From positions 773-64,772 of the forward strand of contig CAYOLL010000011.1 of the NCBI GenBank assembly GCA_964404765.1: 64,000 nt of DNA, written 5' to 3'. Shown here one piece after another: positions 31,590 through 63,777 of the stretch. Source of the stretch: an uncultured Gemmatimonadota bacterium. Lineage in GTDB: Bacteria > 4572-55. Numbering within the stretch: the stretch's first letter is position 1; each line of letters opens with the position of its first letter. A program made the position numbers and the translations under genes. Under the pieces are notes generated by a model. It was not told the DNA's origin and made no database searches. It saw nothing but the letters and a program-made list of their open reading frames with translations.

Positions 31590-31721
31590 TCAGATATTCC
31601 ATTTCAGGCGTGAATTCAAGTTATGAGTGAAATATTACGTCCCAGTTTTTCAGCACATAAGCGAGGAACGAAAAACAAAATACGGCAATCTCAAACCCTG
31701 TCAAGCAAAATTCCAGATTGC

Positions 31722-31812
31722 ATCAAAACCCAACCGTCACGCTCCCATACCCATTCCGCCCGGCCGCCGGGTAGTAATAGTTGCCGCCCGCCCAATCGTC
31801 GTAATAGCCTGT
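31722..31812 (-). pseudogene. Duplicated 3'-end fragment of the TonB-dependent receptor gene (encodes YYDDWAGGNYYYPAAGRNGYGSVTVGF*)
   Basis: About 92 % identical over ~95 bp to 32360-32455, the true 3' end of the receptor gene. Lies immediately after the xisI stop. Confidence 0.8.
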
Positions 31813-31814
31813 TG

Positions 31815-32150
31815 TCAATTATCCCCATAACCCGTGTACTTGTGTTTATAAGGCGCCTGAAATCCCAGCACAATATCTTCCTTGGGGACGCCCATGCTCA
31901 CTAACTCGTCGGCTATGCCCAGTTCGGTGCCATTATGCTGAATCCAAATCTTCCCGTTTTTGATGTCTAAGTGAAGGATGCAGCCGTGTGTCCAGTCATA
32001 ATGATCCCACCCGACCAACATCATCTGATAGTGATCCCGCTGCGTATCAAAAATATACTGAGTTTCCACGCCTGCTGGCGGTGGAAGTTGTTGGCCCAGG
32101 TCTTGTATGAACCGGGTGATATGAGCGCGGTATTGGTCTAATTTTTCCAT
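31815..32150 (-). CDS. xisI: XisI family protein
   Basis: MEKLDQYRAHITRFIQ...IFDTQRDHYQMMLVGWDHYDWTHGCILHLDIKNGKIWIQHNGTELGIADELVSMGVPKEDIVLGFQAPYKHKYTGYGDN is a strong match to the XisI family. Confidence 0.85.
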   Translation of the reverse strand: MEKLDQYRAHITRFIQDLGQQLPPPAGVETQYIFDTQRDHYQMMLVGWDHYDWTHGCILHLDIKNGKIWIQHNGTELGIADELVSMGVPKEDIVLGFQAPYKHKYTGYGDN

Positions 32151-32362
32151 TTTAGAATCTCCTCTGTTCCGGGATCGAAAACAATCAACGTGATTTGCGT
32201 TTCTTCGCAGACCGTTTGCACAAACTGCTTCTGGAAAAAAGCTTTGTGCACATCAATCGGAATGGCCAGGTACAACCGTCTGTCCGGCTCTTTTTCACGC
32301 AGGGCAATGTTGCTTCCGCCGATATGATAGGCAAGATTTGCCTTGTCGTCAACAGAAAAGCA
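32138..32362 (-). pseudogene. xisH: XisH family protein, N-terminally truncated (C-terminal ~74 aa only); overlaps the xisI start
   Basis: Translation CFSVDDKANLAYHIGGSNIALREKEPDRRLYLAIPIDVHKAFFQKQFVQTVCEETQITLIVFDPGTEEILKWKN* matches the XisH C-terminus. It begins in frame immediately after the TGA stop of the TonB-receptor gene (32363-32365). The N-terminal half, with the PD-(D/E)XK catalytic residues, is absent. Confidence 0.7.
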
Positions 32363-34945
32363 TCAAAACCCCACCGTCACGCTGCCATACCCATTCCGCC
32401 CCGCCGCCGGGTAGTAATAGTTGCTGCCCGCCCAATCATCGTAATAGCCCGATGTTTCGTATTCCTTATCAAGCGCGTTATTCAGCCAGACCCTAAACGT
32501 CAGATCGCGCAGGCGGTTGACTTTGAGCGAAGCGTTCAGGTTGAGCACACCGTAGGGGTCAACTGTGCGCGTTTCGTCTTCCGTATTGTCCAAATACTGC
32601 TGGCCGGCATATTGATATTGGGCGGACAGGCTGACATTGCCCACAGCGGCCAATGTCCAATTCGCGGTAGCTCGCAGGTTGGCCAGTGCAGACGGAAATA
32701 AAGCAATGGTCTGGCCGTCCAACCGCTGCGGCTGCCCGTCCCACGAATAGGCGGTGAAATCCACAAACTCGTTCTGGCTGAAGGCGATGTTGCCGGATAA
32801 TTCCAACCCTAAGGGTCTCGCCTTTTGACCCTTAGGGTTTTTCCGTTGATCATCGTCAAACCCTAAGGGTTGAGAAACAAAACCCTTAGGGTTGATTTTG
32901 ATTGCCGTGCTCAATTCGAGGCCCTGGTGCAGCGTTTTGTCGGCGTTGCCGCGCACGGCCCGGCCTTCTTCCACTACCTGGCCGTAAGGTACCAGCTCGT
33001 TGCGGAAGTCCATGCGATACAGGTTTAGCTTGGCGTTCCAGCTCCACAGATTGCTAATCTGTGCTACACTAAGGCCGAGCTCGTAATCGTAAACTGTTTC
33101 GTGTTGGGTCAACGGGTCGCTCCATTCCACATAGCGAATCGAACCATCGGCCTTGTAGACGTTTTTGGATTTGGCAAAGAGCGGGTCCACGCCAAAATCG
33201 TCCGCGCCCTGCCATTGATCGAACATGTCGGCGTCGGTCGGCTCGCGCTGGCCGACGGAGAAATTGCCAAAGGCGCTGAGGCCGCTGGAAATTTCATAAT
33301 TCACGCCGAGCTTGGGATTGAAAAAAGTGTAGTCCACCACGTAATAATTGAGTTCTGCGCCGGAGAAATTACCGGCCGATTTTTGCTCCATCGTGCGCTT
33401 TTTGTATTGCAGTTGCAGCTCGGCCATTAGACGCACGGACGGGGTCAGGGCGTAGTTTTCGTGGGCGTAGACGGTGGCCCACCACTTTTTGCCGTCGTAG
33501 TCGTAATAGCGCAGATTCGGTTGCGCATCCGGCGGCAGATTGGACGCCCACTTGACCTCGCCCCAGTGCGACGACCAAAAATCGCTCAACTCGCCGCCGA
33601 TGGCCAATTGTCCGCGTCCGGCGCTGTGCCGCACATCTAAGCGCGGCAGCCAGCCGATTTGATCCTTGTCCACCCACTTTTGCCGCACAATGTCGAATTC
33701 GCTGATCGTTTGACCCGTGCCGCCCGGGTAATAATCGTAACCGTGTGCGACCAAATCCGCCCCGGTCTTGAACGTCTCGTAATAACCTTCGCCATGCACG
33801 TAAAACAAAGTGTTGCTCAAGGTCAGACCGTCGCGCAGCCGCCACTCGTGTTGCAACTGATATTGGGGCTGATTGAAATTGTCCGTGGTGGGCACATTGG
33901 CATGGTAATGCGTGGGATTGGCGCGATGATTCAGCTTCAAGTCGGCCTCGGCCACGGCGTCCCAGGCCGCGTCCAGATGAAACGGGCCGCTAAAGATGTT
34001 GACGCGCGTGGTCATGTTGGCGTCGAAGCGGGCCGCGCCGATAAAGTAAGCCCAGGCGTCCAGACCGGAACGCTCGCGATAGCCGTCAGTCAGCACTTTG
34101 GAATAGCGGCCATACACGGCGTAGGTGTTGTTGATCAGCCCGGAGCGGAACTGGGCCGTGTATTTGCGTGTGCCGTAACTGCCAAAACCGGTGGTCAGGC
34201 TCACGCCTTGCGCGCCGGTCAGATTGTCCGTGACAACGTTGACCGAGCCGCCAAAACCGCTCAGGCCGACCATGCCACCCACGCCACGCTGCACCTGAAT
34301 ATCCTGCACACTCTCGGCCACATCGGGCAAATCCACCCAATAGACTTGGTGATCTTCCGGGTCGTTGAGCGGCACGTTGTTGATCATGACATTGACGCGC
34401 TGCTGGCCAAAACCGCGAATCTTCAGATACGAATAGCCGATGCCGTTGCCCGATTCAGAATAGCTGAGCAGATTCGGCGTTTCCTGTAGCAGCATGGGGA
34501 TGTCCTGCCCCTGATTGGCCGCGGCAATACGCTCGTGATGCAGATTGGCAAAGGCCATAGGTGTGCGGCCGTCGGCCCGTGTGCCGGTGATGATCACTTC
34601 CTGGCCGGGCAGAATGGTCGGGGTTAATTGGAGCGTCAAAACGGCGCTTTGACTTACGGACACGCGCTGCTTGCCGACGCCGTAACCGAGATGACTGGCG
34701 CTGATCGTATATTGGCCGTCGAGGATATCAGCGATCTCGAATTGACCGGCGGCGTTGCTGACGGCTCCGCGGTTGAGCCCTTCCACCAGCACATTGACGC
34801 CGGGAATGATCGCACCGGAAACAGCGTCCGAAACCGTGCCGGAAACGGTAGCGCAATGGACAATGGACAATGGGCAATGGGCAATAAAAAGAAAAACGGC
34901 GAAAGTGCAGGTAAAAAATCGTAGATTAAAGATTGAAGATTGCAT
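32363..34945 (-). CDS. TonB-dependent receptor with N-terminal carboxypeptidase-regulatory-like domain
   Basis: CarboxypepD_reg-like TVSGTVSDAVSGAIIPGVNVLVEG...GQFEI; plug DIPMLLQETPNLLSYSESG...LKIRGF; barrel ending ...GSVTVGF. Start taken at the second Met (the ORF-track start is 34981). Confidence 0.85.
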   Translation of the reverse strand: MQSSIFNLRFFTCTFAVFLFIAHCPLSIVHCATVSGTVSDAVSGAIIPGVNVLVEGLNRGAVSNAAGQFEIADILDGQYTISASHLGYGVGKQRVSVSQSAVLTLQLTPTILPGQEVIITGTRADGRTPMAFANLHHERIAAANQGQDIPMLLQETPNLLSYSESGNGIGYSYLKIRGFGQQRVNVMINNVPLNDPEDHQVYWVDLPDVAESVQDIQVQRGVGGMVGLSGFGGSVNVVTDNLTGAQGVSLTTGFGSYGTRKYTAQFRSGLINNTYAVYGRYSKVLTDGYRERSGLDAWAYFIGAARFDANMTTRVNIFSGPFHLDAAWDAVAEADLKLNHRANPTHYHANVPTTDNFNQPQYQLQHEWRLRDGLTLSNTLFYVHGEGYYETFKTGADLVAHGYDYYPGGTGQTISEFDIVRQKWVDKDQIGWLPRLDVRHSAGRGQLAIGGELSDFWSSHWGEVKWASNLPPDAQPNLRYYDYDGKKWWATVYAHENYALTPSVRLMAELQLQYKKRTMEQKSAGNFSGAELNYYVVDYTFFNPKLGVNYEISSGLSAFGNFSVGQREPTDADMFDQWQGADDFGVDPLFAKSKNVYKADGSIRYVEWSDPLTQHETVYDYELGLSVAQISNLWSWNAKLNLYRMDFRNELVPYGQVVEEGRAVRGNADKTLHQGLELSTAIKINPKGFVSQPLGFDDDQRKNPKGQKARPLGLELSGNIAFSQNEFVDFTAYSWDGQPQRLDGQTIALFPSALANLRATANWTLAAVGNVSLSAQYQYAGQQYLDNTEDETRTVDPYGVLNLNASLKVNRLRDLTFRVWLNNALDKEYETSGYYDDWAGSNYYYPAAGRNGYGSVTVGF
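32800..32905. repeat. Four copies of palindrome CCCT(A/T)AGGGT(T) inserted in frame inside the TonB-receptor gene (encode ...NPKGFVSQPLGFDDDQRKNPKGQKARPLGLE...)
   Basis: The same palindrome family forms the MITE-like elements at 23085-24250 and 40185-40275. Confidence 0.75.
34854..34885. repeat. Heptamer tandem repeat (CAATGGA x2, CAATGGG x2) inside the 5' coding region (signal-peptide region) of the TonB receptor gene
   Basis: Read directly; on the coding strand it encodes IAHCPLSIVHC. Confidence 0.85.
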
Positions 34946-43075: not shown

Positions 43076-43651
43076 ATGCCCATTGAATTAGGGACGCTCA
43101 CCCTCAATCGAATTCATAAGATTGCCACGACCGAGCAAGCGGCTTTTGTCCATCACCCGATTCCCGGTTTAGAGGGCAGCGCCACCCAAAACCTGGGTCG
43201 GCAGCCTGTTCGTCTGACCATTGAGGGCATTTTTTTCGGCGTAACGGCCAAAGACGATCTGACCAAATTGCGTGAGTTGTATATCAAACGCGAGGCTCTG
43301 GACTTTGTGGCGGATATTGTCGGCGAGGCCTACATCGGCAAAGTACTGCTGGAAAAATTTGAAGTGATGGAATCCGCCGCCGATCCGACCCAATTCAGCT
43401 ACCTTGTGACCGTTGTCGAGTACACGCCCTCAACCAAAACCACCAGCGCCGCAGCGGCCACCAACCAGAAAGCAGCCGCCTTAGCCGCCGACCGCCTGTC
43501 CGCCATGTCTCTGCCGGATGACCTCTCCCTCGGCTCCATCCCGGAAATCAGCGACCCAATTACGCCCCTCAAAGCCTCCTTAGAACCCGTCCGCGAAGCC
43601 ACCACCGCTTTAACCGACTCCCTCGGCGCGCTCAAAAATCTGTTTGGGTGA
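43076..43651 (+). CDS. Hypothetical protein (191 aa) in the sheath-tube cluster, possible tail/baseplate-associated
   Basis: RBS AAGGAG before the ATG. Globular N-terminal 120 aa, then an Ala/Ser/Thr-rich tail. Confidence 0.4.
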   Translation: MPIELGTLTLNRIHKIATTEQAAFVHHPIPGLEGSATQNLGRQPVRLTIEGIFFGVTAKDDLTKLRELYIKREALDFVADIVGEAYIGKVLLEKFEVMESAADPTQFSYLVTVVEYTPSTKTTSAAAATNQKAAALAADRLSAMSLPDDLSLGSIPEISDPITPLKASLEPVREATTALTDSLGALKNLFG

Positions 43652-43756
43652 TATAGCGCAAGCTTATGCTGATAACTATCGCCTAACCGACAATCGGTGT
43701 AAAACCTGTTGCGCCATTGGCTTTAGCATGTAAATTACCTACCGTATCCTTGGCCA

Positions 43757-44953: not shown

Positions 44954-44963
44954 AATAGGGGGG

Positions 44964-47900: not shown

Positions 47901-50900
47901 GTGGGCAGTGAACATCCTAAAATTAATGGACTTATCGAAGAAAACTATATTGTCGGTTATGATGAATGGTGGGCCAATGGGATTATTGCTAATGCCACTG
48001 ATAATTGCTCTATAACGACAACTATTCAACGGAACATAGTAAAAACAGTAGAAGGTCAGGGCATAACTGTAACCAGCAATGGCTCTGGTATTCTGAATTG
48101 TCTTGTGCAAAATAATACCATTGACCATGCGACTTCGCATGGTATTTATGCCTCTGCCGACTCTCCAGCAGCATCCATTTTCATCAAAAACAATATCGTG
48201 GTCAATTCCAATTTTGGTATTCGGCAAGTTAAAGGCCATGTATCAATTCAGTACAACAATTGCTTTGCCAGTTCTTCAAAAAATTACGAAGGCTTTACGC
48301 CAGATGTCACAAATATTTCAAACGATCCTCAGTTTATCATTTGCCAAAATCAGAGCTTTCTTTTTGAAAATCTTCCCTATTGCCTTTCGGGAACATCACC
48401 GTGTATTGGCACAGGCGATCCTGATCCTCAATTCAATGACCCGGATGGGACACAAAATGACATGGGCGCAATTTATTATCATCGTACACGTACGCCGGGC
48501 GTTTTGACTGTCAATGACGATGGTGGAGCTGATTTTTCTGATATTCAGGCGGCAATCAATGCGGCCCAGCCTGGTGATACGATCAAAGTTGCTGGGGGGA
48601 TGTATACAAACGATTCAGGCTACAGCTTGTGGAGCAAAGACAACATTATCATATTAGGTGGTTGGTCTGATGATTTTTGGCAAAGGAACACAATTCAACA
48701 TGTTTCTTTGCTCGAAAGTTCTCCATCCGCCACCTCGACTATTTTTATACTATTTTCGGGTTGTAGCAACGCAAAATTTGATGGCTTCAAAGTTCATGTT
48801 ATTCATGAGAATTGTACGGGTATCTCCATTCTTTCAGGTCCTGAAGTTACATCTGTAACGATTAGCAACAACGATGTAACTACAACAACCAGTGGGAGTG
48901 GCATTAATGTTTGGGCAGGTTTGAGTCAACGTGTTTCGGCCACAATCGAAGATAATACAGTTTCCGCTATTGAGGTATCAAATACGTACTCAACCAATAT
49001 TTCCGTCTCTGCCGGATTAGGCGGCGTATTAGAAAATATAATTGTAAGAAGGAACAAGGTTGATAATAAAAATACCAATGGAATTGTTTTTTACGGCTAT
49101 GTTGATAGTCTTAAGACTACGCGTATCAGCGGGATTATTGAAGAAAATTATATCAATTGTAATGGAAAAGGAAGCCGTGGCATATCAGTTGGAACAAATT
49201 TTACGGATGTTTCTTTAGATGTTACTATTTGTAAAAACATCATCGAAAATTCGCAGTGGGCGGGTGTTATAGTTTGGAGCGATCATGCTATCAAATCCTT
49301 TCGTTGTAAAGTGCTCAATAACACTGTTAAACAAATTGACGATGATGATACCAATACAGCAGGAGTTTATATTGATTTTCGAGAGTCGATGAGCGCATCG
49401 TTAGAAATTCGTAACAATGTCATGATTAATGGTGGTTATGGTATTCAAGCGCAAGCTATTCCAAGCGGCATAAATATACGTTTTAACAATGCTTTCGGAA
49501 ATAGACACCAAAACTATTTTGCTTCCAACTACACTTTTGACAATACAAATCTGCAAATAAACCCGCAGTTCACAAGCTGTACAAATCAAAATTTTCCGTT
49601 TGAAAACCTTCCCTATTGCCTTTCAGCAACTTCCCCATGCAAAAACACGGGCGACCCTGATCCCCAATACAACGACCCGGATGGCACACGCAACGACATC
49701 GGTGCATTGTATTTTCATCAAACACGTGGATTAGCGCCAATCGCCGTCATTGACGCCATCACCCCTGCGCCAGCTACCATCTTCGATGTCATTCATCTAC
49801 GTGGCCACGGTTACGATCCTGACCATCTGAATGATCCGCAAGCCATTACGGCCTATCGCTGGGCTCTCAAAGTCAATGACGCTGTCTATCAAATCGCCGC
49901 CAGCGCCGATACCACGCTGCGGGCCAATTATCCGTTTCAGTCGGGTTACAACGTCTTGCAATTTCAGGTACAAGATCAAGATGGGTTATGGTCCACGGCC
50001 GCGGAACAAACTTTGTATATCTTTGGCCCGTCGCGGGCCATTATCTGCGCCGGTCACCGCAATTTGAGCGGTTCTTGGCAAAGCGACGCCCTCTGGCCCT
50101 TAACCGATCAGGTCACCACCCACGCCTACCGCGTCCTGGACGAAGGCATCCATCCCGATACCACCCAAAGCAAGGCCAACATCTATTTTTTACATCCGGA
50201 TATTCAGCGACCCCAAACGGATGCCACATCCACTTTAGAAAATCTGCGCCAGGCCATTACGAATTGGGCTCCGACGCAAGGCGTGGGGCCGGGCATTCCT
50301 TTGCTCATTTACTTGACCGGACACGGCGGCAGCGATTACTTTGAAGTCAACGGCGCGTACGAACGCCTCTCCGCCGACACCCTCAATGTCTGGCTGAACG
50401 ACTTGCAGCAACGAACCGGCTGCGATCAGGTCATGGTCATCGCCGATTTTTGTTATTCCGGAACATTTTTAGACAATCTGCGCACCGCCGCCCGGCGGGA
50501 GCAATCAACCCAACAGCGCGTAGTCATTAGCAGCACCGGCTCACAAGTGGCCCATTTTCTGAGTGGCACGTCCTTCTCTCAAGTTTTCTTCAATCAAATG
50601 GCCGGCGGGCAAAAACGTATGATTGGCGATGCCTTTGCCGCCGCCAAAGACGAAATGGCCAAGAACAGTCTCTTTGGCAATCAAATTCCTTTGCTGGACG
50701 ATGACGGCAACGGTCAGGATAACCCCCCTGAGCAGGCCAGAAGAGTGCCGGTCATCGTTTATATTGACGCAGGCGAACCGCCGAAACTAATTCTCAGAAT
50801 GGCAGACCGCGAACTGCCCCGCCCCGGGTTGCCGGATACACTGCTAATGGATGTATCCTCGCCCCATAAAGATTTGGCTTACGTGGGCGTGTCCATCGTG

Positions 50901-51299
50901 CCGCCCAATATCGTCATTCCCGATAAGACGGAACAATTTCAAACGCCCATCTTGCAATTGGAAACCTTGCCCTTGCAAAATATAGGCGAAATCAGCCCCC
51001 GTTTATATCGCTATCGCCTTATCTACAACAAGCTGAATCAGTGCGGCATGTACACCTTCAACGTCTTTGCCTACGATACCGACGGCAACTATGCCCTGTC
51101 CGTCACCCACAAAGTCAAAGTCGCCGCCGGCCTCGGCGATGTCAATTTCGATTGCCGGACCAATCTCGCCGACGCTTTGTTAATCCTGCAACACATCCTC
51201 AAGCTGAACACGCTCACCGCCGCGCAACAAGCCAACGCCGATGTTAATCGTGACGGCACGGTCGATATCCGGGATGTGCTTGGTTTGCTTAATCGATAA
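44964..51299 (+). CDS. Giant secreted modular protein (2111 aa): 4 tandem right-handed beta-helix modules, Ig-like region, clan-CD cysteine-peptidase-like domain, C-terminal dockerin
   Basis: Signal peptide MMRLNNAVILFLTVSFIFFTTVAFA. Four ~350-aa modules each start W(T/K)VNDxGGxDF(S/T)DIQAAIDAAxxGDTIKVAxGxY and end SPCIDAGDPxPxYNDxDGTxNDxGAIYYH. Clan-CD-like His/Cys dyad (LIYLTGHGGSDYFE ... VIADFCYSGTF). C-terminal dockerin (GDVNFDCRTNLADALLILQ...ADVNRDGTVDIRDVLGLLNR). Confidence 0.75.
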   Translation: MMRLNNAVILFLTVSFIFFTTVAFARTWTVNDSGGADFTDIQPAIDAASAGDTIKVAEGRYINANTTVIDRKSSIFLCGGWSEDFSQYDPDHYISYVENVNTVKGTTFSITWCDFVEIQGFEIHLTSGAPELPHANIYASDNRKVVIRRNKLYMSLAANYTNTILIHAPNFLNEAVVDSNISIDTQRHQNTYQPHFVAGAIIQGRIHAEFRYNEIHARDGIGIVLQTVPESRVHTYASGVIENNLVRCYGTGWGLAASAPVDSVEVTIRNNVVINSGYLAIEATTPNQGGHIAAFIYNNTVDSVFVSWASDPMGIYANNLSATSTVDFRNNLVMNADRAIAWTGQGSVTAEYNTLYNNRVNAYNLSLNATHLFTDPILTKCNDIGNPFEDISYCLNENSPCIDAGDPSPSYTDADGTRNDTGAIYYRHPATPPVVWKVNDNGGVDFSTLQAAIDAASNGDTIKVAEGFYSTEWHTGYIDGKQNIHLIGGWTNDFKNFDPQNYPTILKSEDVHVISIINSSDISVEGFDIIADGVNEQSSGVAIANSDRIQIQHNRVQLTNKASLGTAISIVSWGANTASAIVQENILINPKTTSTFGQRLLQIFSGNSGSTRAMIQRNVIIGNQEIGLFFFSTADSYNSCYAEVLNNTIVSSGVGISAWSSSYTQMDTLILKNNIILDCRDGIVKGTEFAYFSAEHNNSFNNNSNFMNFEPTGSNISFDPQFVSCLNKSFPFENKPYCLSSISPCIDAGDPNPKYNDPDGTQNDMGAIYHHRAGIPRTWKVNDSGGANFTDIQAAIDTAATGDTIKVAAGNYMIQIPISIQKKSNIYISGGWAENFSQQNSTQFVSRIQNTNATDGSVFLIVNSNSIQLEGFEIHVTNGSYLAADGINIKDCLDFVLRQNTIYVETAAILARGIIVASDVTAASGVVEHCTINDTQTNRVNQQLLVGYANTFGNLDITFRRNKVYVRDSEAITLYAERTVGSEHPKINGLIEENYIVGYDEWWANGIIANATDNCSITTTIQRNIVKTVEGQGITVTSNGSGILNCLVQNNTIDHATSHGIYASADSPAASIFIKNNIVVNSNFGIRQVKGHVSIQYNNCFASSSKNYEGFTPDVTNISNDPQFIICQNQSFLFENLPYCLSGTSPCIGTGDPDPQFNDPDGTQNDMGAIYYHRTRTPGVLTVNDDGGADFSDIQAAINAAQPGDTIKVAGGMYTNDSGYSLWSKDNIIILGGWSDDFWQRNTIQHVSLLESSPSATSTIFILFSGCSNAKFDGFKVHVIHENCTGISILSGPEVTSVTISNNDVTTTTSGSGINVWAGLSQRVSATIEDNTVSAIEVSNTYSTNISVSAGLGGVLENIIVRRNKVDNKNTNGIVFYGYVDSLKTTRISGIIEENYINCNGKGSRGISVGTNFTDVSLDVTICKNIIENSQWAGVIVWSDHAIKSFRCKVLNNTVKQIDDDDTNTAGVYIDFRESMSASLEIRNNVMINGGYGIQAQAIPSGINIRFNNAFGNRHQNYFASNYTFDNTNLQINPQFTSCTNQNFPFENLPYCLSATSPCKNTGDPDPQYNDPDGTRNDIGALYFHQTRGLAPIAVIDAITPAPATIFDVIHLRGHGYDPDHLNDPQAITAYRWALKVNDAVYQIAASADTTLRANYPFQSGYNVLQFQVQDQDGLWSTAAEQTLYIFGPSRAIICAGHRNLSGSWQSDALWPLTDQVTTHAYRVLDEGIHPDTTQSKANIYFLHPDIQRPQTDATSTLENLRQAITNWAPTQGVGPGIPLLIYLTGHGGSDYFEVNGAYERLSADTLNVWLNDLQQRTGCDQVMVIADFCYSGTFLDNLRTAARREQSTQQRVVISSTGSQVAHFLSGTSFSQVFFNQMAGGQKRMIGDAFAAAKDEMAKNSLFGNQIPLLDDDGNGQDNPPEQARRVPVIVYIDAGEPPKLILRMADRELPRPGLPDTLLMDVSSPHKDLAYVGVSIVPPNIVIPDKTEQFQTPILQLETLPLQNIGEISPRLYRYRLIYNKLNQCGMYTFNVFAYDTDGNYALSVTHKVKVAAGLGDVNFDCRTNLADALLILQHILKLNTLTAAQQANADVNRDGTVDIRDVLGLLNR

Positions 51300-51310: not shown

Positions 51311-51652
51311 ATGCCAAAAAAAAACCGCCGTTCATCGGCGCTCTTGAAAGAACCGTCCGTCGCTTATGAAACCGCCATGCCAACGGATGCTCGCGCGAAC
51401 GATTTTATCCACAATCTTCACCTGCAGTTTGTTACCAATGCCGCCGGCATCCAGACGGCGGTTGTCATTCCTATATCCGAATGGCAGCGTTTGGTCAGGG
51501 CATACCAGGCTCTTTTGCGTCGTTATTCCACAACGACTGAAGAAATTACCTTCTGGTCCGATGCGGAAATAGATTACCTTGGTGAAATACTGCCGTTTAG
51601 CCATGACGAAAATGAGGAGGACACCGGGGAATGGTTCGAAAAATCTATTTAA
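51311..51652 (+). CDS. Putative antitoxin partner of the MazF-like gene (hypothetical)
   Basis: 113 aa; 3' end overlaps the MazF-like start by 22 nt; no clear family match. Confidence 0.3.
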   Translation: MPKKNRRSSALLKEPSVAYETAMPTDARANDFIHNLHLQFVTNAAGIQTAVVIPISEWQRLVRAYQALLRRYSTTTEEITFWSDAEIDYLGEILPFSHDENEEDTGEWFEKSI

Positions 51653-51969
51653 CCAGAATTTACTACACCAGTATGACCGATTATAAAGATCGACCGGTGT
51701 TAATCGTCAAAGAATATGAGAAATTCGATGTGCTATTTGCGCCTTTGACAACTAATTTGCAGCGCGGCGGCATTGAAATTACCACTGCCGATCTGGAACA
51801 TGGCTCGCTTTTACGTCCATCGGTTGTTATTGCGGCAAAGTTGGCCACCATTAGTCAGACATTATTGTTGAAAGAACTTGCCACACTCAAGCAAGAGACG
51901 TTTGCAAAAGTGATGCGTCAGATTTGCCAGGGTTTTGCGTGCACCGATTTTTTAGGGAATCAGGGGTGA
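51631..51969 (+). CDS. MazF/PemK-family toxin-like protein
   Basis: DYKDRPVLIVKEYEKFDVLFAPLTTNLQRGGIEITTADLEHGSLLRPSVVIAAKLATISQTLLLKELATLKQETFAKVMRQI fits the MazF/PemK pattern (RP.LVV...........PLTS...........L.....V......TI....L.). Confidence 0.5.
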   Translation: MVRKIYLTRIYYTSMTDYKDRPVLIVKEYEKFDVLFAPLTTNLQRGGIEITTADLEHGSLLRPSVVIAAKLATISQTLLLKELATLKQETFAKVMRQICQGFACTDFLGNQG

Positions 51970-51978
51970 AAAAAAACC

Positions 51979-54198
51979 ATGCCACACTCACTTGCCGATC
52001 ACATCCATTTTATCGTAGGCGACTTGCACGAGGGATTCATTTATCCCGGCGCCAAGATCGCCCTCCTCACCGACCATCAGATATTTGCCCGCTTTCATCG
52101 ACGGCATCGCCGGTTGAAGTTTGGCGGCGGCGTCAGCCTGAGTAGCTTGTCCGCGCTCAATCCGGGTGATTACGTCGTGCACGTGCAGCACGGCATCGGC
52201 GTGTACAAAGGCGTGGAGCGTATCAGCGTCCAGGGCGTCAGCGGCGATTATTTGACGGTCGAATACAGCAACGGCAAGCTGCGCGTACCGGTCGATCAAT
52301 TCAATCAGGTGCAGAAATACGCCAAAGAAGGCGCGGAAGGCGGCGTCAAGCTGCACAAGCTGGGCGGCACGGATTGGGAACGCACCAAGGCCAAAACCCG
52401 CCAGGCCCTGAAGCTAAAAGCCGAGGAGTTGCTGCGCCTCCACGCCGAACGCGAACTACACGCCGGCCACGCTTTTCCGCCGGATGCGTCCGATATGCGC
52501 CAATTGGAAGCCTCTTTCCCGTGGCAGGAAACGCCCGATCAAATCCGGGCCATCGGCGATGTCAAAACCGATATGGAAAAGGGCCGACCTATGGATCGGC
52601 TGATCTGCGGCGACGTGGGTTTCGGCAAGACCGAGGTGGCGATTCGCGCGGCTTTTAAGGCGTTTACAGACGGCAAGCAAACCGCCGTCCTCGTGCCCAC
52701 AACGATTCTGGCCCAGCAGCATCTCAACACCTTTAGCGAGCGGCTGCGCGATTTTCCGGTCACGATTGAGATGCTGTCCCGTTTCCGCGATGCCGCCCAG
52801 CAAAAGGACATTATCAAGCGGCTGAACGAGGGCAAGATCGACATTATCATCGGCACCCATCGGCTGTTTTCCAAAGACGTGCAGTATCCGCGACTGGGCC
52901 TGGTGGTGGTGGACGAGGAGCATCGCTTTGGGGTCAAGGACAAGCTGCGGCTCAAGGAATTGCGCCGCACGGTCGACTTTATGACCATGACCGCCACGCC
53001 GATTCCGCGCACGCTGCAAATGGGTCTGATGTCGATTTGGGATATGTCGGTCATCAACACGCCGCCGCGCAACCGCTACCCGATTCATACCGAAATCGCC
53101 TCCTTTCACGACGACGTGATTCGGCGGGCGGTGGAGCGCGAGTTGAGTCGCAACGGCCAGGTCTATTTTGTCCACAACCGGGTGGAGACGATTCCGGCCA
53201 TGTACAATTATCTCAAGCAGATTTTGCCGGACACACGGATTTGCGTCGCCCACGGCCAGATGAACGAGCACGAATTGGAGCAGTCCATGATTGACTTTTA
53301 CGACCGCAAATACGACATGCTGCTGGCCACGACGATTATCGAAAGCGGCCTGGACAATCCCAACGCCAACACGATTTTGATCAACCGCGCCGACAAGTTT
53401 GGTCTGGCCCAATTGTATCAGTTGCGCGGGCGGGTGGGCCGGTCGTTTCATCATGCTTACGCTTATTTGCTGATTCCGCCGGATCGGACGCTGAGCATGG
53501 TTGCCCGGCGGCGGTTGCGGGCGCTGGAAGAAGCGGAAGAGTTGGGCAGCGGTTTAAAATTAGCCATGAGCGATTTGGAGATTCGCGGGGCCGGCAATTT
53601 GCTGGGCGCGGAACAGAGCGGGCATGTGGCCGCGGTCGGCTTCGATCTCTACAGCAAGCTGCTCAAAGAGGAAGTGGAACGTCTGCGCGGCAAGCCACGC
53701 CACGAACGGCCGGAAGTCAAGATCGAAACGGATTTTGAATGCCTGCTGCCCGACGAATTTATCACCGACAGCGAGGAAAAAATCATCATCTATCAACGAT
53801 TGTCCGAGTGCGAAAACATCACGCAAGTGGAGGATATCGGCAAGGAGTTAAAAGACCGGTTTGGCGATGTGCCGCTGCAGGCGGTCAATCTGCTGGATTT
53901 TATCGCGCTCAAGAAAGTGTGCGAGCAAACGCCTATTGCCCATCTGGATTTGCGCAACGATCAAATCTACTTCGAGTTCCGCGATCCACAAAATCCGCCC
54001 TTGCGCCCGTTTGAAAAAGCGTTCAAGGAAGTCAAAATCGAGCTTCGCCCCTATCCGACCAAAAAGGGCATTGCCGTCGTCGGCAAGATGGGCGGGATTG
54101 AGCGAGCAAGCCAGTTGATGACGCTGCGGTTGGCGTTGGAAGGGTTGGTGGCGAAGGGGGAGCAACAAAGCGGGGTTTTGTCATCGCCATCTCGCTGA
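51979..54198 (+). CDS. mfd: Transcription-repair coupling factor Mfd homologue lacking the N-terminal UvrB-homology module (corresponds to about E. coli Mfd residues 430-1148)
   Basis: RNAP-interacting domain motif GDYVVHVQHGIGVYKG; superfamily-2 translocase motifs LICGDVGFGKTEVAIRA and VVDEEHRFG; C-terminal TRCF domain (LEIRGAGNLLGAEQSGHVAAVGFDLY...). Only 739 aa. There is no room upstream (the TA module ends at 51969) for the ~450-aa N-terminal domains. Confidence 0.8.
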   Translation: MPHSLADHIHFIVGDLHEGFIYPGAKIALLTDHQIFARFHRRHRRLKFGGGVSLSSLSALNPGDYVVHVQHGIGVYKGVERISVQGVSGDYLTVEYSNGKLRVPVDQFNQVQKYAKEGAEGGVKLHKLGGTDWERTKAKTRQALKLKAEELLRLHAERELHAGHAFPPDASDMRQLEASFPWQETPDQIRAIGDVKTDMEKGRPMDRLICGDVGFGKTEVAIRAAFKAFTDGKQTAVLVPTTILAQQHLNTFSERLRDFPVTIEMLSRFRDAAQQKDIIKRLNEGKIDIIIGTHRLFSKDVQYPRLGLVVVDEEHRFGVKDKLRLKELRRTVDFMTMTATPIPRTLQMGLMSIWDMSVINTPPRNRYPIHTEIASFHDDVIRRAVERELSRNGQVYFVHNRVETIPAMYNYLKQILPDTRICVAHGQMNEHELEQSMIDFYDRKYDMLLATTIIESGLDNPNANTILINRADKFGLAQLYQLRGRVGRSFHHAYAYLLIPPDRTLSMVARRRLRALEEAEELGSGLKLAMSDLEIRGAGNLLGAEQSGHVAAVGFDLYSKLLKEEVERLRGKPRHERPEVKIETDFECLLPDEFITDSEEKIIIYQRLSECENITQVEDIGKELKDRFGDVPLQAVNLLDFIALKKVCEQTPIAHLDLRNDQIYFEFRDPQNPPLRPFEKAFKEVKIELRPYPTKKGIAVVGKMGGIERASQLMTLRLALEGLVAKGEQQSGVLSSPSR

Positions 54199-58510: not shown

Positions 58511-58965
58511 CCGGTTTTGGAAAACAAAAAACCACGAATTCACAGGGAATCCGTGGCTATGGCGGTTGCCGAATATAAAAAAGCCACGGACGTTAAGATA
58601 TTGTGCGTTCGTGGCTTAGAAGAATTTTTACTAAATTGAACTTAGTGTCGCATCTTCACCACGGTGCACAAAACGGCCCGATAATCACTGTAAACTAAAA
58701 ACATTACAGTGCGCGGGAACCTTTGCACAAAAGTTGTGGTGAATTTTAACATGCAATAAACTCCTAAAGAGAGTTATTAATTATATTCGTTTTTATCTAT
58801 AAAAAGTCCGGTTGGACTATAACCTAAAATTATCAGCGGGTTAAAGATATTTTTTCTTAAAACGATGTCAAGCGGATTTTTTAAATTTTTAGCCAATGAC
58901 GAAAAAATTTAAAATGGATCCCAGCCCCGCATGAGCCGGGACCGGGATGCAAAAGTCTGTCAACG

Positions 58966-59075
58966 CAACAGCGCCATCTTCTTCGTCTCCGTGCCGGACG
59001 GCGTTTGCAGGCGATAGACATTGACGCCGCCGCGCACGGCTTGACCGTCGTCCGCGCCGCCGTCCCATATTCCAC
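58966..59075 (-). pseudogene. Fragment of a T9SS C-terminal sorting domain coding end (…WDGGADDGQAVRGGVNVYRLQTPSGTETKKMALLR*)
   Basis: About 90 % identical to the 3' ends of the LVIVD genes at 60055-60180 and 61618-61750. Confidence 0.7.
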
Positions 59076-59080
59076 AACAA

Positions 59081-59431
59081 TCAACGTGTTTCAGCAAAAT
59101 CTTGTTTCGAAGAGCCAATTCGCTTCCGCTGTTTGGTTCGCTTTTCCAGGCCGGGTAGCTGAGCCATTAATCCCATCAACGAACGCAATGCCCGGTTGAC
59201 GGATTGTGAATCCGGGAAACAGGTCAACACATCGGGATCAAGCCGCACGGTGCCCGCTTCATAACGCACTTGTTGAACTTCCGTGGTCCCGTCCGCTTTG
59301 TGGATTTCAATGGTATAACCTTCGTGCAGCGGGCGATAGTGCCGGCCACGCACGGCTCCCCGTAAATCGTATTCCGAGCGAAGTTCGTCCACTTCGTTTT
59401 TGATAGGCGGGTTAGATGCTTTCTTCTTCAT
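59081..59431 (-). CDS. brnA: BrnA-like antitoxin
   Basis: 116 aa; ...LRSEYDLRGAVRGRHYRP... motif. Overlaps the brnT stop, the canonical BrnT-BrnA order. Confidence 0.65.
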   Translation of the reverse strand: MKKKASNPPIKNEVDELRSEYDLRGAVRGRHYRPLHEGYTIEIHKADGTTEVQQVRYEAGTVRLDPDVLTCFPDSQSVNRALRSLMGLMAQLPGLEKRTKQRKRIGSSKQDFAETR

Positions 59432-59696
59432 ACATTTTCCTCTCTTGCCGTGTTGCTCGGCGGCAGCTAATGATCCGAATACATCCTCTGCGTTCAGTGT
59501 AATTTATCAGTAGCAGTCGTCCCAGGGACGAATAGCCAACCCCAATGAAACGATCCTCATCCTCCGAATGGTCCGGATCGTGAATTGTCGCAATATGCGT
59601 ATCGTTAAAGATGGTCGCGCCTTCTTGAAAGCTTACGTCATGTTTTTTGAGATTGGTCTTTGCTTTTTCCTCATCCCATACAAATACAGAACTCAT
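59412..59696 (-). CDS. brnT: BrnT (DUF497) ribonuclease toxin
   Basis: MSSVFVWDEEKAKTNLKKHDVSFQEGATIFND...DPDHSEDEDRFIGVGYSSLGRLLLINYTERRGCIRIISCRRATRQERKMYEE is a strong match to the BrnT family; start chosen at the internal Met. Confidence 0.8.
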   Translation of the reverse strand: MSSVFVWDEEKAKTNLKKHDVSFQEGATIFNDTHIATIHDPDHSEDEDRFIGVGYSSLGRLLLINYTERRGCIRIISCRRATRQERKMYEEESI

Positions 59697-59762
59697 AAAA
59701 ACTTCCGATAACCCTTTCTCTGGTAAATGGTTTTCTCTCACGTTACTTCAGCAAAACCGGCA

Positions 59763-59830
59763 CGTTTTGAGGATCAGCATAACAGCGCCATCTTCCCGGT
59801 TTCCAGGCCATCCGGCGTTTGCAGGCGATA
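59763..59830 (-). pseudogene. Second degenerate T9SS-CTD 3'-end fragment (MQIYRLQTPDGLETGKMALLC*)
   Basis: Homologous to 58966-59075 and to the LVIVD gene ends. Confidence 0.6.
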
Positions 59831-60049
59831 AATTTGCATGTTTGATCCTTTTCAGAGTGTTACGAATGGGCACTTGAATAGGAGTAAAATAGGACTGCGC
59901 CAATTTATTGTCAATACCAAACGGCAGGCAGGATAAAAAGAAAAAGCCGCTCTCCATTTCAAGAGAGCGGCTTTGTCCCATGTCCCCGGCACTTTTTGTA
60001 CAACTATGGATACGGCACACTTCCGGTAAGTGCCGGGGACATTTCAGAA

Positions 60050-61360
60050 TCAGCGCAGCAAAACCATCTTCTTCGTCTCCGTGCCGGCCGGGGTTTGCAG
60101 GCGATAGAGATAGACGCCGCTGCTCACGGCTTGACCGTCGTCCGTGCGGCCGTCCCAGGTGAGTTCATGCGACCCGGCGGCTAAGCGCTCCCGGGCCAGG
60201 GTCTTGACCAGCCGACCGGCGGCGTTATAGATGCGCAGGTGGATTGCGCCGGCCCGGGCGAGTTGGAAGCGGATGGAGGTTTGCTCGGTAAAAGGATTGG
60301 GATAATTGCCGGTGGTGAGCGCTGCGGTTGGCTGCGGTTGCGGGTCGTCTTCGATGGCGGTGAGGTCGGTATAATACAGGATGACCAACCCGCCATACCA
60401 ATTGGCCACGTAGGCATAGTTACCGCTGACCGCCACGCCAACAGCATCGATCGGCGTGTCGTAAGAGCCTATTTCGACGGGCGCAACCGGGTTACTGACG
60501 TTGATCACCCGCAGCCCGGAACCATAATCGGCCACGCAGGCATAGCCGCCACTGACCGCCACGTCAACAGCAACGCCCGGCGTGTCGTAATAGCCAACCT
60601 CGCTGGGCGCAGCCGGGTTGCTGACGTTGATCACCCGCAGCCCGCCATGACCATCGGCCACGTAGGCATAGCCGCCACTGACCGCCACGCCATAAGCACC
60701 GCCCGGCGTGTCGTAAGAGCCCGCCTCGCTTGGCGCGGCCGGGTTGTTGACGTTGATCACCCGCAGTCCGGAATCATAATCGGCTACGTAGGCGTAACCG
60801 CCGCTGACCACCACGGCTAAAGCGCCCGGCGTGTCGTAATAGCCAACCTCGCTGGGCGCAGCCGGGTTGCTGACGTTGATCACCCGCAGTCCGCCATAAC
60901 CATCGGCCACGTAGGCATAGCCGCCGCTGACCGCCACGTCCCCAGCATAGCCCGGAGTGTCGTAATAACCAACTTCGCTGGGCACGGCCGGGTTGCTGAC
61001 GTTGATTACCCGCAGCCCGGCATAATAATCGGCCACGTAGGCATAGCTGCCGCTGACCGCCACGCTATAAGCAGCGCCCGGTGTGTCGTAAGAACCAACT
61101 TGGCTGGGCGCGCCCGGGTTGCTGACGTTGATTACCCTTAGCCCGACAGAACCCGCGGCCACGTAGGCGTAGTCGCCGCTGACCGCCACGTCATGAGCAT
61201 AGCCCGGGGTGTTGTAAATACTCACCGCGCTGGGTGCGCCCTGCACCGCGCCTTCGGGAGCATCTACAAACGCCAAATTTTGGCTCCAGCCTGCTATCGG
61301 ACATAAGGCCAACGCCGTAAAAATCATAAACATCGCCGCATACAGCAGTTTCGTAAACAT
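60050..61360 (-). CDS. LVIVD-repeat protein with T9SS C-terminal sorting domain
   Basis: RBS GAGGGGGA before ATG 61360; signal peptide [26 protein letters not shown]. About 8 LVIVD repeats ([32 protein letters not shown]). C-terminal [37 protein letters not shown]...[20 protein letters not shown]. Confidence 0.8.
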
Positions 61361-61614
61361 ATTGTCCCCCTCGTTTGATAGGTGAACTTCAAAAAATCCG
61401 GAAAAATCATACTCGAAAATTAAACAATTACCAGGTCTTTGCAAGAAAAATCGGCCTATCCGCTGACGGATCACTTGGAACACCGGCAGTTTCTAAAACC
61501 CGGCGGCTCGCCGACCGGATAAAAAGAAAAGCCGCTCTCCATTCTCCGAGAGCGGCTTTTAGATAAACAACGGCGTTAGATGGACGCCACCTTTGAGGTG
61601 GTGTCCATCTAAAA

Positions 61615-63777
61615 TCAACGCAACAAAACCATCTTCTTCGTCTCCGCGCCGGACGGCGTTTGCAGGCGGTAGACATAGACACCGCTGCCCACGGCTTGAC
61701 CGTCGTCCGTGCGGCCGTCCCAGGTGAGTTCATGCGACCCGGAGGCCAGGCGTTCATTGGCCAAGGTCTTGATTAGCCGACCGGCGGCGTCATAGATGCG
61801 CAGGTGGATTGCGCCGGCCCGGGCGAGTTGGAAGCGGATGGCGGTTTGCTCGGTAAAGGGATTGGGATAATTGCCGGCGGTGAGCGCGGCGGTTGGTTGC
61901 GGCTGCGGGTCTTCGATGGCGGTCGAGCCGCTGTATTGCAATGTAAACAGCCCCCCACTGCCATTAGCCATATAAACGTAATTGCCAGACAAAGCAATAC
62001 CTTCTACTCTATTTGAAGTCTCGTAAAATCCAACCTCTTTTGGATGCGTTGGATCACTAATATTAACAACCCGCAGACTAACGCCATCCTTGGCTACATA
62101 CGCATGAATTCCGGAAATAACGATCTGACCTGCATAATTGCCCGATATAAAACCAGTTTCTGCGGGAGTGGAAGGCGTTGCAATATTGAGAATTCGTAAG
62201 GCGGATGTACCTGCGACATAAGCATAGTTGCCGGCAATTGCGACTCCCCTGGCATCATCGGGGGTAACGTAATGCTTAACTTCCGTGAGAGATTGCACAT
62301 TACTGATGTCAATGATTCGCAAATCACCGTCGGCTATATAGGCGTAATTTCCGGATATGGCAACATCAGATGCATTTTTGGGAGGGTCGTAATATCCGGC
62401 TTGACGAGGCGACGCTGGATTGCTAACATCAATAACACGTAAGCCCTTACTGGAACCGCCAACAACATAGGCGTAGGCCCCAGAAATGGTCACAGCATCA
62501 CCACGGTCGCCTAAATTAATCTCGGCTACGCCTTGTGGATTCATCGGATCACCTATGTTGATAATGTTCAAATTGCCATTGCGGTTACTCACGTTGTTAT
62601 TAATCAAATACGCATAATTGCCGGATACGGCAATGTCCATGGCGTAAAATGACACCGGACTTGCAAGCTGCCCTATTGGATTCGGATATACGGGATTGCT
62701 GATATTGAGGATACGCAACCCTCCATTCTGATCAGCTACGTAGGCGTAGTTGTTTACAACGGCCAAATTCTGTGCATAGCCTGGTGTGTTGAAATAGCTA
62801 TACTCGGAAGGATTGACAGGATCGCTCACATTTACAATTGATAAACCCCGCAGACCGGCCGCTATGTAGGCATAGTTGCCTGATACGGTTAGATCCAGAG
62901 GTTCAGTCTGTGTATCATAAAAATTGAAAAAACGTGGTGTCGTAGGATTACTGACATCAATGATGTACAACGCTCCAGATTGACCAGCAACATAAGAAAC
63001 ATAGGCAAGGTTGCCTGAGACAACAACATCTAATGGGCCACCTAAGCCGGATGTCAGATCAAAAAATCCAACTTCTGTAGGACTAGCCGGATTGTTAATG
63101 TTGAGTATTCTCAAGCCGCTTTTATGTTCGGTGATGTACGCGTAATTGCCAGAGATGAATAATCCAATAATGGGCACGGATGCTGTAAACTTACCAATCT
63201 CGATCGGGTTTGTGGGATCATTAACATTTAATATCCTCAAGTCGGGACCGGCAGCAAAATACGCATAATTTCCAGAAACAGCGACAGAGACCGGAACACC
63301 AAAATTAACATTATTACTAAATTGACCGACTTCATTGGGCTTTTCGGGATTGCTGATATTAATGATCCGCAACTTACCGCCTTTTTCGGTTACGTAAGCA
63401 TAATTTCCAGAGACAGCAAGATCATCTGTGAAACTCAAATCAATATGGCCAATTTCTGTAGGGTGGACAGGTGCATTCCCAATAACGTGCAACCCGCGTT
63501 CTCCAATGACGTAAGCATAATTACCGCTGACAGCTATTCCCTTGACGTCCACGATGGAATAGCCCAATGTTACAGCCGCGGCTGGATTACTCGCATCTAG
63601 GACACGTAAAGAGCCTCCCGTGCCTACATAGGCAATATTGCCCTGCACAACAACAGCGTTTGTGGCGCCATGGGGCCAATGCCCAATTAAATTCACATTC
63701 TGGCTCTGCTGGCCAAAAACCGCGCTGCTCCAACTCGCCAACAGCGCAAACCATAAAGCGATCCGAAACTTCATCAT
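61615..63777 (-). CDS. LVIVD-repeat protein with T9SS C-terminal sorting domain (paralog)
   Basis: RBS GGAGGAGG before ATG 63777; signal peptide MMKFRIALWFALLASWSSAVFG; many LVIVD-type repeats; the same C-terminal sorting domain. Confidence 0.8.
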   Translation of the reverse strand: MMKFRIALWFALLASWSSAVFGQQSQNVNLIGHWPHGATNAVVVQGNIAYVGTGGSLRVLDASNPAAAVTLGYSIVDVKGIAVSGNYAYVIGERGLHVIGNAPVHPTEIGHIDLSFTDDLAVSGNYAYVTEKGGKLRIINISNPEKPNEVGQFSNNVNFGVPVSVAVSGNYAYFAAGPDLRILNVNDPTNPIEIGKFTASVPIIGLFISGNYAYITEHKSGLRILNINNPASPTEVGFFDLTSGLGGPLDVVVSGNLAYVSYVAGQSGALYIIDVSNPTTPRFFNFYDTQTEPLDLTVSGNYAYIAAGLRGLSIVNVSDPVNPSEYSYFNTPGYAQNLAVVNNYAYVADQNGGLRILNISNPVYPNPIGQLASPVSFYAMDIAVSGNYAYLINNNVSNRNGNLNIINIGDPMNPQGVAEINLGDRGDAVTISGAYAYVVGGSSKGLRVIDVSNPASPRQAGYYDPPKNASDVAISGNYAYIADGDLRIIDISNVQSLTEVKHYVTPDDARGVAIAGNYAYVAGTSALRILNIATPSTPAETGFISGNYAGQIVISGIHAYVAKDGVSLRVVNISDPTHPKEVGFYETSNRVEGIALSGNYVYMANGSGGLFTLQYSGSTAIEDPQPQPTAALTAGNYPNPFTEQTAIRFQLARAGAIHLRIYDAAGRLIKTLANERLASGSHELTWDGRTDDGQAVGSGVYVYRLQTPSGAETKKMVLLR

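Follow-up and report, generated by a model that had tools for sequence, protein, structure and literature searches.

To our knowledge, the spread of chromosomal toxin-antitoxin modules is largely unexplained, and most such modules are unlinked to any recognizable mobile element. Elements that target gene 3′ ends, bringing a substitute end along, include tRNA/tmRNA islands, Salmonella genomic island 1 (SGI1) in trmE, mobilizable genomic islands (MGIs) in yicC, and the remnants termed cis-mobilizable elements (CIME); homology-facilitated illegitimate recombination in natural transformation, known from Acinetobacter and Streptococcus pneumoniae, usually goes with deletion of recipient DNA. A further route, 'insertion with long target duplication', has been described for restriction-modification units, which lack mobility genes and are flanked by repeats of host sequence of 46 to >400 bp (PMC2853133). 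Many of the published repeat pairs are near-identical, with matches of 44/46, 47/47, 417/423, and 384/412, and a genome with the empty site served to validate them (Furuta, Abe and Kobayashi 2010, PMC2853133). A later review, in which Nobusato et al. 2000 is cited on long target duplication, attributes this route to restriction-modification units alone and does not extend it to toxin-antitoxin systems (PMC3874152). Here, we analyze a predicted toxin-antitoxin module of the BrnT/BrnA type (hereinafter brnTA) in a stretch of 64,000 nucleotides (hereinafter the window, to whose positions all coordinates refer unless a contig is named) from an uncultured Gemmatimonadota bacterium (GenBank assembly GCA_964404765.1, contig CAYOLL010000011.1, positions 773 to 64,772). 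The module is bracketed by orphan copies of the 3′ end of neighboring genes coding for LVIVD proteins with a type IX secretion system (T9SS) sorting domain, and a comparable layout recurs at a second locus of the window and in unrelated metagenome contigs.

All genes of the brnTA region lie on the minus strand, and its features, in the direction of transcription, are as follows:

61615..63777, minus strand: gene A, LVIVD beta-propeller with a T9SS C-terminal sorting domain (Pfam LVIVD 1.4e-112, FlgD_ig, Por_Secre_tail)
61527..61560, minus strand: intrinsic terminator 3′ of gene A, homologous to that of gene B (repeat search, self-BLAST, terminator search)
60050..61360, minus strand: gene B, LVIVD with a T9SS sorting domain (Pfam LVIVD 1e-84, FlgD_ig, Por_Secre_tail)
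59943..59974, minus strand: intrinsic terminator 3′ of gene B (terminator search)
59886..59914, minus strand: promoter-like TTGACA-17-TATTTT (10/12 matches), 5′ of the relic open reading frame and brnTA
59774..59839, minus strand: relic open reading frame (ORF) of 21 codons, MQIYRLQTPDGLETGKMALLC*, whose last 18 codons and stop are fragment 2 (BLAST, reading frame)
59774..59830, minus strand: orphan fragment 2, 18 codons and stop, 57 nt (BLAST)
59412..59696, minus strand: brnT toxin gene, 94 aa from ATG (Pfam BrnT_toxin, PF04365, 6e-26, full profile 1-77; identical protein P0001)
59081..59431, minus strand: brnA-like antitoxin gene, 116 aa, overlapping brnT by 20 nt (homology to the partner gene in locus L083)
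58960..59067, minus strand: orphan fragment 1, last 35 codons and stop of a sorting-domain gene, 108 nt (BLAST)
58917..58943, minus strand: terminator-like hairpin directly 3′ of fragment 1, unlike the terminators of genes A and B

A preliminary description of this DNA had proposed four same-strand copies of the 3′ end of a T9SS sorting-domain gene, and these are borne out by self-BLAST of the window (E=4e-6 to 9e-122) as well as by a repeat search, which returns the same 3′-end families. Two of the copies terminate full genes, in which the sorting-domain profiles PF18962 and PF13860 cover the last ~80 residues in Pfam searches. The other two are the orphan fragments, which exist as described, with their positions corrected from 58966-59075 to 58960-59067 and from 59763-59830 to 59774-59830.

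The 3′ ends of genes A and B are 90.8% identical over 314 nt (60048-60361 versus 61613-61923; E=9e-122 in the window self-BLAST), whereas outside this shared end the repeats of the two genes agree to no more than about 60-70%. In gene A, the GC content is 0.457 for the body and 0.64 for the last 314 nt, next to 0.614 for the body of gene B; the break in gene A is sharp, separating the body (61927-63777) from an end (61615-61926) that resembles all of gene B in composition. Because this boundary is so sharp, the sequence suggests that the sorting domain and terminator were copied between genes A and B by gene conversion. The gene ends at this locus are prone to recombination, since A and B differ strongly in GC and yet share a 3′ end and terminator that are 91% identical. 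Between the stop codon and the common terminator, each gene has a long palindrome differing from that of the other (61576-61612 in A; 59980-60042 in B), and the loop of the gene B palindrome shows a 12-nt indel (60002-60013) in an independent assembly (L082).

Fragment 1, with its stop codon at 58960-58962 and its homology beginning at W-D-G codons, fits the sorting-domain profile at 1e-9 and is 88.0% identical to the gene B end over 108 nt (60050-60157; E=3e-32) and 89.8% identical to the gene A end (61615-61722; E=6e-35; both by window self-BLAST). Against genes A and B it shows 7-8 non-synonymous and 3-4 synonymous codon changes, including a Y to N change in a conserved strand. It is separated from the brnA stop codon by 13 nt, and the hairpin 3′ of it (58917-58943) now probably terminates the brnTA transcript; beyond this hairpin lie an AT-rich promoter region and then an ABC-transporter operon. 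Fragment 2 is the in-frame tail of the relic ORF, whose ATG is preceded by an AAGGA ribosome-binding site at 59846-59850. Too short for the sorting-domain profile, it was matched by BLAST alone, with 82% identity to fragment 1 over 50 nt (59781-59830 versus 58967-59016; E=4e-6 in the window self-BLAST). Over the 57 nt common to all copies, fragment 1 is 91.2% identical to A, 87.7% to B, and 78.9% to fragment 2, and fragment 2 is 71.9% identical to A and 73.7% to B. In other words, A, B, and fragment 1 constitute one homogenized end (88-92%), and fragment 2, which is situated between them, is the outlier at 72-79%. All copies at this locus lose their homology 1-3 nt past the stop codon, and on the upstream side they break off sharply, no homology above shuffled controls extending upstream of fragment 1 or fragment 2. 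The flanks of brnTA do not represent a simple, fresh duplication of a target site: they are 79% identical and measure 57 versus 108 nt, and fragment 1 resembles A and B more than it does fragment 2.

The bracketed genes are brnT and a putative brnA partner. BrnT retains all 15 invariant columns of a 24-protein alignment, and the brnA-like product is 69% identical at the amino acid level to the partner gene of the closest brnT homologue (L083). As in other members of the BrnT/BrnA family, there is a toxin domain with conserved residues, a toxin-first gene order, and an overlapping downstream gene, the putative antitoxin; unlike in those members, the antitoxin scores below the BrnA_antitoxin threshold (PF14384; a weak match with E=0.085 and 13.7 bits, for a cut-off of 26.1). 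We predict that brnTA, about 0.7 kb long, is a type II toxin-antitoxin operon and intact. Immediately 5′ of it is the stop codon that once ended the third gene of the LVIVD/T9SS array. The stretch from the gene B end through fragment 2 to brnT is reproduced in the independent Logan assembly L082, identical bar the 12-nt loop indel. An assembly artefact was considered and ruled out, as independent assemblies reproduce the junctions at both loci of the window discussed here.

The second of these loci comprises a TonB receptor gene and an xisHI module with the following features:

32363-34981, minus strand: TonB-dependent receptor gene (Pfam TonB_dep_Rec_b-barrel, Plug), its product ending in ...GYYDDWAGSNYYYPAAGRNGYGSVTVGF*
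32360..32455, minus strand: 3′ end of the TonB receptor gene, upstream repeat copy (self-BLAST)
32141..32308, minus strand: truncated xisH, coding for no more than the C-terminal 51 residues (Pfam XisH positions 83-133 of 134, E=1e-13)
31815..32150, minus strand: xisI, intact (Pfam XisI 3.5e-41)
31720..31815, minus strand: orphan copy of the TonB receptor 3′ end, 96 nt (self-BLAST)

The two receptor ends (31720-31815 versus 32360-32455) are 92.7% identical over 96 nt (E=8e-34) and differ at five positions, of which four are synonymous and one is non-synonymous. The orphan contains the last 28 codons of the receptor, its stop codon, and three more bases, with clean homology starting 5 nt past the xisI stop codon; 3′ of it come the native spacer and then lspA. 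Between the receptor gene and the xisH remnant are 55 nt of unrelated sequence with a promoter-like TTGACG-17-TATCAT. The whole stretch from the receptor end through xisH′, xisI, and the orphan to lspA is identical in the independent Logan assembly L001. The xisHI module of the window is 5′-truncated, because its xisH covers just positions 83-133 of the 134-position profile; the parallel drawn earlier between this locus and brnTA thus holds for the layout (96 nt, 92.7%), though not for an intact module. In the literature on xisHI, XisH is considered a likely endonuclease and XisI a directionality factor, and xisHI pairs without xisF occur in several lineages; flanking duplications go unmentioned there (PMC4853749).

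We defined as a footprint the succession of a gene end, a small module, and an orphan copy of that same gene end, and found it at three of the six inspected loci with close BrnT relatives, the window included. In L226/L227 (L226:2665-4273), a contig pair from two samples, a gene for a 76-aa AF_1447-like protein is followed by brnT, brnA, a ~130-nt orphan of the gene end, a CopG antitoxin gene, and a second orphan. The BrnT encoded here is 67% identical to that of the window, the CopG antitoxin gene is without its BrnT partner, and the two orphans start no more than about 8 nt from each other. Between the outer orphan and the gene there are 10 nucleotide differences, which fall in nine synonymous codons and one non-synonymous codon. 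In L234 (L234:916-2339), the end of a DUF87/HerA-like gene precedes brnT (product 66% identical to that of the window), brnA, a DUF2269 gene, and, 13 nt past the stop codon of the latter, an 85-nt orphan of the DUF87 end (76% identity), giving an insert of about 1.25 kb. Two further cases involve xisHI genes. One (L164:1-1081) has the end of a MalG-like permease gene, clipped by the contig edge, an intact xisH-xisI pair, and an orphan of the permease end with a nonsense change. In the other (L107:36-2107), xisI itself is the anchor, that is, the gene whose end is copied, and a PIN pair and a HigB pair come behind it, the former trailed by a 151-nt orphan of the xisI 3′ end and the latter by a 59-nt orphan.

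Across all footprint cases, the orphan starts 5-19 nt past the last stop codon of the cassette, the homology between copies ends no more than 10 nt past the stop codon of the anchor gene, the copies are 76-95% identical and never near-identical, and the inserts measure only 0.4-1.3 kb. Two cassettes downstream of a gene-end copy are 5′-truncated, namely the xisH of the window and the toxin-less CopG gene of L226. No integrase or transposase domain was found in the Pfam-scanned ORFs near either window locus, and no recombinase occurs among the Pfam families recorded for the called genes of the BrnT-relative loci, with L107 and L164 scanned in part. The anchors, among which are cytoplasmic proteins, include a MalG-like permease, a HerA/DUF87 ATPase, a 76-aa AF_1447-like protein, and xisI. 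The tie to outer-membrane or secreted proteins that had been drawn at first does not hold, and the diversity of the anchors led us to reject the targeting of a conserved sequence coding for a C-terminal beta-strand.

L107 also holds a 5′ fragment of higA further downstream (2869-3282). The L216-L222 loci of protein P0016 are polymorphic, some having brnT-brnA followed by a second brnT and a CopG gene, and others being without the second brnT and keeping the CopG gene alone. In L155 (319-2974), an xisH-xisI pair has a CRISPR array on either side, and the two arrays have variant forms of one ~37-nt repeat.

To gauge how frequent such orphan ends are, we took 2,751 ORFs of ≥100 aa at non-target loci and scanned for further copies of their terminal 150 nt. 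Matches were obtained for six of the 2,751, four of them full-length paralogue ends or repeat elements, leaving at most two true 3′ stubs (L107, confirmed; L213, a candidate). In L213 (L213:3400-3838), the 3′ end of a 104-aa ORF recurs as a 70-nt copy (73%), which follows the ORF at a distance of ~60 nt and precedes brnT by ~160 nt. A symmetric scan recovered 41 ORFs with a 3′ partial copy alone and 32 with a 5′ one alone, counts that antisense and spurious ORFs render too noisy to establish a 3′ bias. The sorting-domain profile, a narrow one built from few sequences, found fragment 1 of the window as the sole orphan end among 30 matches. Flanking repeats were present at 9 of 60 xisI loci, compared with 6 of 265 random positions, and an Rfam scan of five xisI loci returned no matches that would mark the repeats as ends of RNA genes. 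None of the four other toxin-antitoxin-type pairs that we tested in the window (HEPN/MNT, ParDE, MazEF, DUF2442) has flanking repeats above shuffled controls. The footprint is rare in general, clustered at small addiction modules, and far from universal among these; it is also recurrent and non-random.

Searches for relatives of the window recovered distant homologues. The best matches were 57% identical for the TonB receptor, 64% for the ABC transporter, about 66% for BrnT, and 67% for XisI, and came from KSB1-like, 'Cloacimonetes 4572_55'-like, and unassigned metagenome contigs. A scan for the receptor across 185,579 species genomes (best match again 57%) gave no synteny and, in 80 loci, no 3′-end duplicates, and the gene order around the best matches of all four proteins is unrelated to that of the window. 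Exact-protein look-ups returned only identical short contigs of the same samples, and a search with the 103-aa sorting domain for paralogues in the same genome gave 22 candidates, the best 55% identical. By these comparisons, the source contig (64,777 nt, from a metagenome-assembled genome at NCBI) belongs to an isolated lineage.

For the brnTA locus, we tentatively favor, at a chance we put a little short of even, an insertion-linked displacement, whereby a cassette enters behind the stop codon of a gene by recombination that supplies or duplicates the gene end, the older end being pushed downstream. The starting state would be a third array gene ending in fragment-1-type sequence, followed by the terminator at 58943-58917. 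The brnTA cassette would have entered right behind the stop codon of this gene through recombination anchored in its 3′ end, and the event would have supplied a substitute copy of the last 60-140 nt of the gene or duplicated them. The gene would have emerged intact and would then have ended in fragment 2, a divergent copy that may have been imported, and the resident end (fragment 1 with its own terminator) would have become an orphan downstream of brnTA. A later internal deletion of the gene body could have left the promoter, ribosome-binding site, ATG, and last 18 codons; fragment 1 would be decaying, with its terminator now serving brnTA. The same process would have acted at the TonB receptor/xisHI locus of the window, and in other genomes repeated rounds might produce arrays in which a gene is followed by alternating cassettes and orphan ends. 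A gene must once have ended directly upstream of brnT, because fragment 2 is the in-frame tail of an ORF with promoter, ribosome-binding site, and ATG; a substituted end would fit, since fragment 2 is the outlier between homogenized ends; and both copies would have diverged mostly as ends of working genes, as the differences are synonymous-biased where decay is slight.

As for the enzymology, no recombinase genes are encoded in the cassettes. Candidate routes would be RecA-dependent single-crossover integration of a circular cassette carrying a copy of the gene end, the circle possibly having been excised between two such copies; entry of related-strain DNA by homologous recombination on one side and illegitimate recombination on the other; or the long-target-duplication route of restriction-modification units. 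Homologous entry from a diverged strain with an arbitrary second junction, or single-crossover circles, would fit the copy divergence, the synonymous bias, and the 5′-truncation, which duplication by staggered cuts would fit less well. The insertion-linked displacement would need one insertion and one deletion, would account for the outlier position of fragment 2, and would match five other loci. In a bolder version, which we regard as distinctly unlikely, a cassette together with a copy of the last 60-150 nt of its anchor would enter after the stop codon without encoding a recombinase, perhaps as a RecA-dependent circle or through one-sided homologous recombination, building an integron-like array with the host 3′ end in the role of attC. 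The extension of this version to stacks of BrnTA, xisHI, HigBA, PIN pair, and CopG modules, with an arbitrary anchor and older cassettes pushed downstream, is to our minds just as doubtful. Separately, a role of the fragments as silent cassettes for surface variation was considered and rejected, the sorting domain being removed after secretion.

Several observations weigh against insertion-linked displacement. No sister genome or empty site turned up in the genome, metagenome, and protein collections searched, so the insertion of brnTA is one that we infer and do not see, given closest homologues of 57-67% identity and no synteny. The array of LVIVD paralogues is a natural source of gene stubs; the flanks of brnTA, at 79% identity and 57 versus 108 nt, require an extra deletion to be assumed; and copies that were once functional paralogues would account for the synonymous bias just as well. 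No junction motif shared among the footprint loci was seen. In wider surveys, flanking repeats are present at 0 of 40 BrnT loci in viral contigs, and xisI loci are not enriched over neighboring ORFs of the same loci (9/60 versus 13/112), a control that is imperfect in that about half of its positive ORFs are toxin-antitoxin or defence genes. Three of the six close BrnT-lineage loci are without the footprint, as are most BrnTA and xisHI loci, and toxin-antitoxin-rich loci hold 5′ stubs too. The footprint is no peculiarity of this contig, as it recurs at L226/L227, L234, L164, and L107, and it is no rule for such modules, as the viral BrnT and xisI counts show.

The local paralogues permit an account that dispenses with any special mechanism of insertion. 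In this account, the main rival, which we consider rather unlikely, the array once numbered four tandem LVIVD/sorting-domain genes, the spacer that separates the third from the fourth received brnTA without harm, and the bodies of both genes were later lost to ordinary deletions, with the deletions halting at the addictive module and the terminator that it needs and leaving two 3′ stubs. Genes A and B prove that a local array with 3′-end conversion exists (GC 0.457 versus 0.614, ends 91% identical), the promoter, ribosome-binding site, and ATG before fragment 2 befit an internally deleted resident gene, and fragment 1 shows decay (7-8 non-synonymous versus 3-4 synonymous changes, Y to N in a conserved strand). 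The flanks of brnTA, moreover, are unequal in length and are not mutual nearest relatives, and toxin-antitoxin islands carry other partial duplicates, including 5′ stubs. The price is two extra ancestral genes and at least two deletions, each leaving a 3′ end abutting the module, and the middle gene alone must have escaped the homogenization of ends. Such decay is also hard to extend to single-copy anchors (the TonB receptor, MalG-like, DUF87, and AF_1447-like genes), and it leaves unexplained why the orphans of L226 start within about 8 nt of each other.

Another rival is the relic of a larger integrase-borne, CIME-like island, in which the gene-end copies are attL and attR, a replacement end was carried in, and all cargo except the addictive module was lost. 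The geometry of a (once-)intact gene end, an element, and a displaced end with homology stopping at the stop codon fits such a relic, tandem accretion as in L226 and L107 is typical of att sites, and the synonymous-biased divergence of the copies is compatible with it. We nevertheless hold it to be improbable, as neither an integrase nor a remnant thereof turned up in or around the six loci (L107 and L164 scanned in part), the inserts are short at 0.4-1.3 kb, the anchor genes are all different with no common core sequence visible, and the stop-to-orphan distance of 5-19 nt everywhere would demand repeated exact trimming. In-situ long target duplication, with staggered breaks 60-140 nt apart filled after capture of the module and copies identical at birth, has been proposed for restriction-modification units. 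It would yield variable repeats of about 100 nt without mobility genes, and some of the published cases likewise overlap gene 3′ ends (PMC2853133). It is highly improbable here: the pairs are 76-95% identical versus mostly ≥93% in the tabulated published cases, the synonymous bias is 9:1 in L226 and 4:1 at the TonB locus where one neutral copy predicts about 40% synonymous changes, and a right boundary always ≤10 nt from the stop codon is unexpected for random staggered cuts.

Elsewhere in the window, defence-like genes (48-9289 and 27641-30283) code for nSTAND NTPase-WD40, TIR-WD40, adenylate cyclase-AAA-TPR, and truncated DUF6079 proteins. A 49-nt direct repeat (24422-24470 and 27581-27629; 88%) has a perfect minus-strand TTGACA-17-TATAAT promoter, and the ORF overlapping its first copy (24288-24602) is probably spurious. 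Imperfect direct repeats of 26 nt (about 25122-25147 and 26222-26247) lie on the two sides of a PD-(D/E)XK_2 gene (Rpn-like 'transposase'; 25347-26198). A phage-tail-sheath cluster resembling contractile injection systems spans 39066-51299, and at 51311-54198 a MazE-like/MazF pair with spacers of 10-12 nt is placed between a 2,111-aa gene and mfd. The product of this mfd has 739 aa and starts at the RNA-polymerase-interacting domain, without the N-terminal UvrB-homology part.

Compared with known systems, the loci described here share with 3′-end integrative elements the direct repeats formed by a gene end and a displaced end around an element, tandem accretion, and toxin-antitoxin genes as surviving cargo. 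Those elements, however, encode or adjoin a tyrosine or serine recombinase and are kilobases long, whereas here no recombinase was found, the inserts are 0.4-1.3 kb, and the targets vary; the Pfam-scanned ORFs of the window include none with a recombinase domain. Integrons likewise consist of sub-kilobase, same-orientation cassettes, often toxin-antitoxin genes, each followed by a repeat of 60-150 nt. In integrons this repeat is the attC hairpin, whereas here it is the coding 3′ end of a host gene, with frame and stop codon conserved, there is no intI gene, and the cassettes have their own promoters. Homology-facilitated illegitimate recombination places one junction in conserved host sequence and the other at an arbitrary point, as would suit this case, and would account for the 5′-truncated xisH of the window and the toxin-less CopG gene of L226; its usual outcome, though, is deletion of recipient DNA, and here there is duplication. 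A reproducible footprint would offer both a searchable signature and a testable mechanism for the movement of toxin-antitoxin modules, and in annotation, short orphan 3′ ends beside small modules, which can be missed or mis-called as small genes, could serve as landmarks of past insertion.

An earlier surmise that the mechanism might be undescribed has to be qualified, as restriction-modification units offer a precedent, the nearest on record, in their 'insertion with long target duplication' of about 100 bp, for which no mobility genes are needed (PMC2853133, PMC3874152). As in those cases, we find a small addiction-type unit without transposase or integrase between variable direct repeats of host sequence, some at the 3′ end of a gene, and direct repeats >30 bp without a mobility gene are present at both brnTA (57/108 nt) and xisH′-xisI (96 nt). 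The copies, however, fall short of near-identity (78.9% over 57 nt at brnTA; 92.7% at the TonB locus). The published pairs are mostly more alike, whereas the repeats here are 76-95% identical, synonymous-biased, and end at the stop codon. The cargo also differs, being restriction-modification genes there and toxin-antitoxin or xisHI modules here, in part arranged in arrays. With a reproducible footprint, toxin-antitoxin and xisHI modules would join restriction-modification units, hitherto the sole ones for which this mode of mobility is on record.

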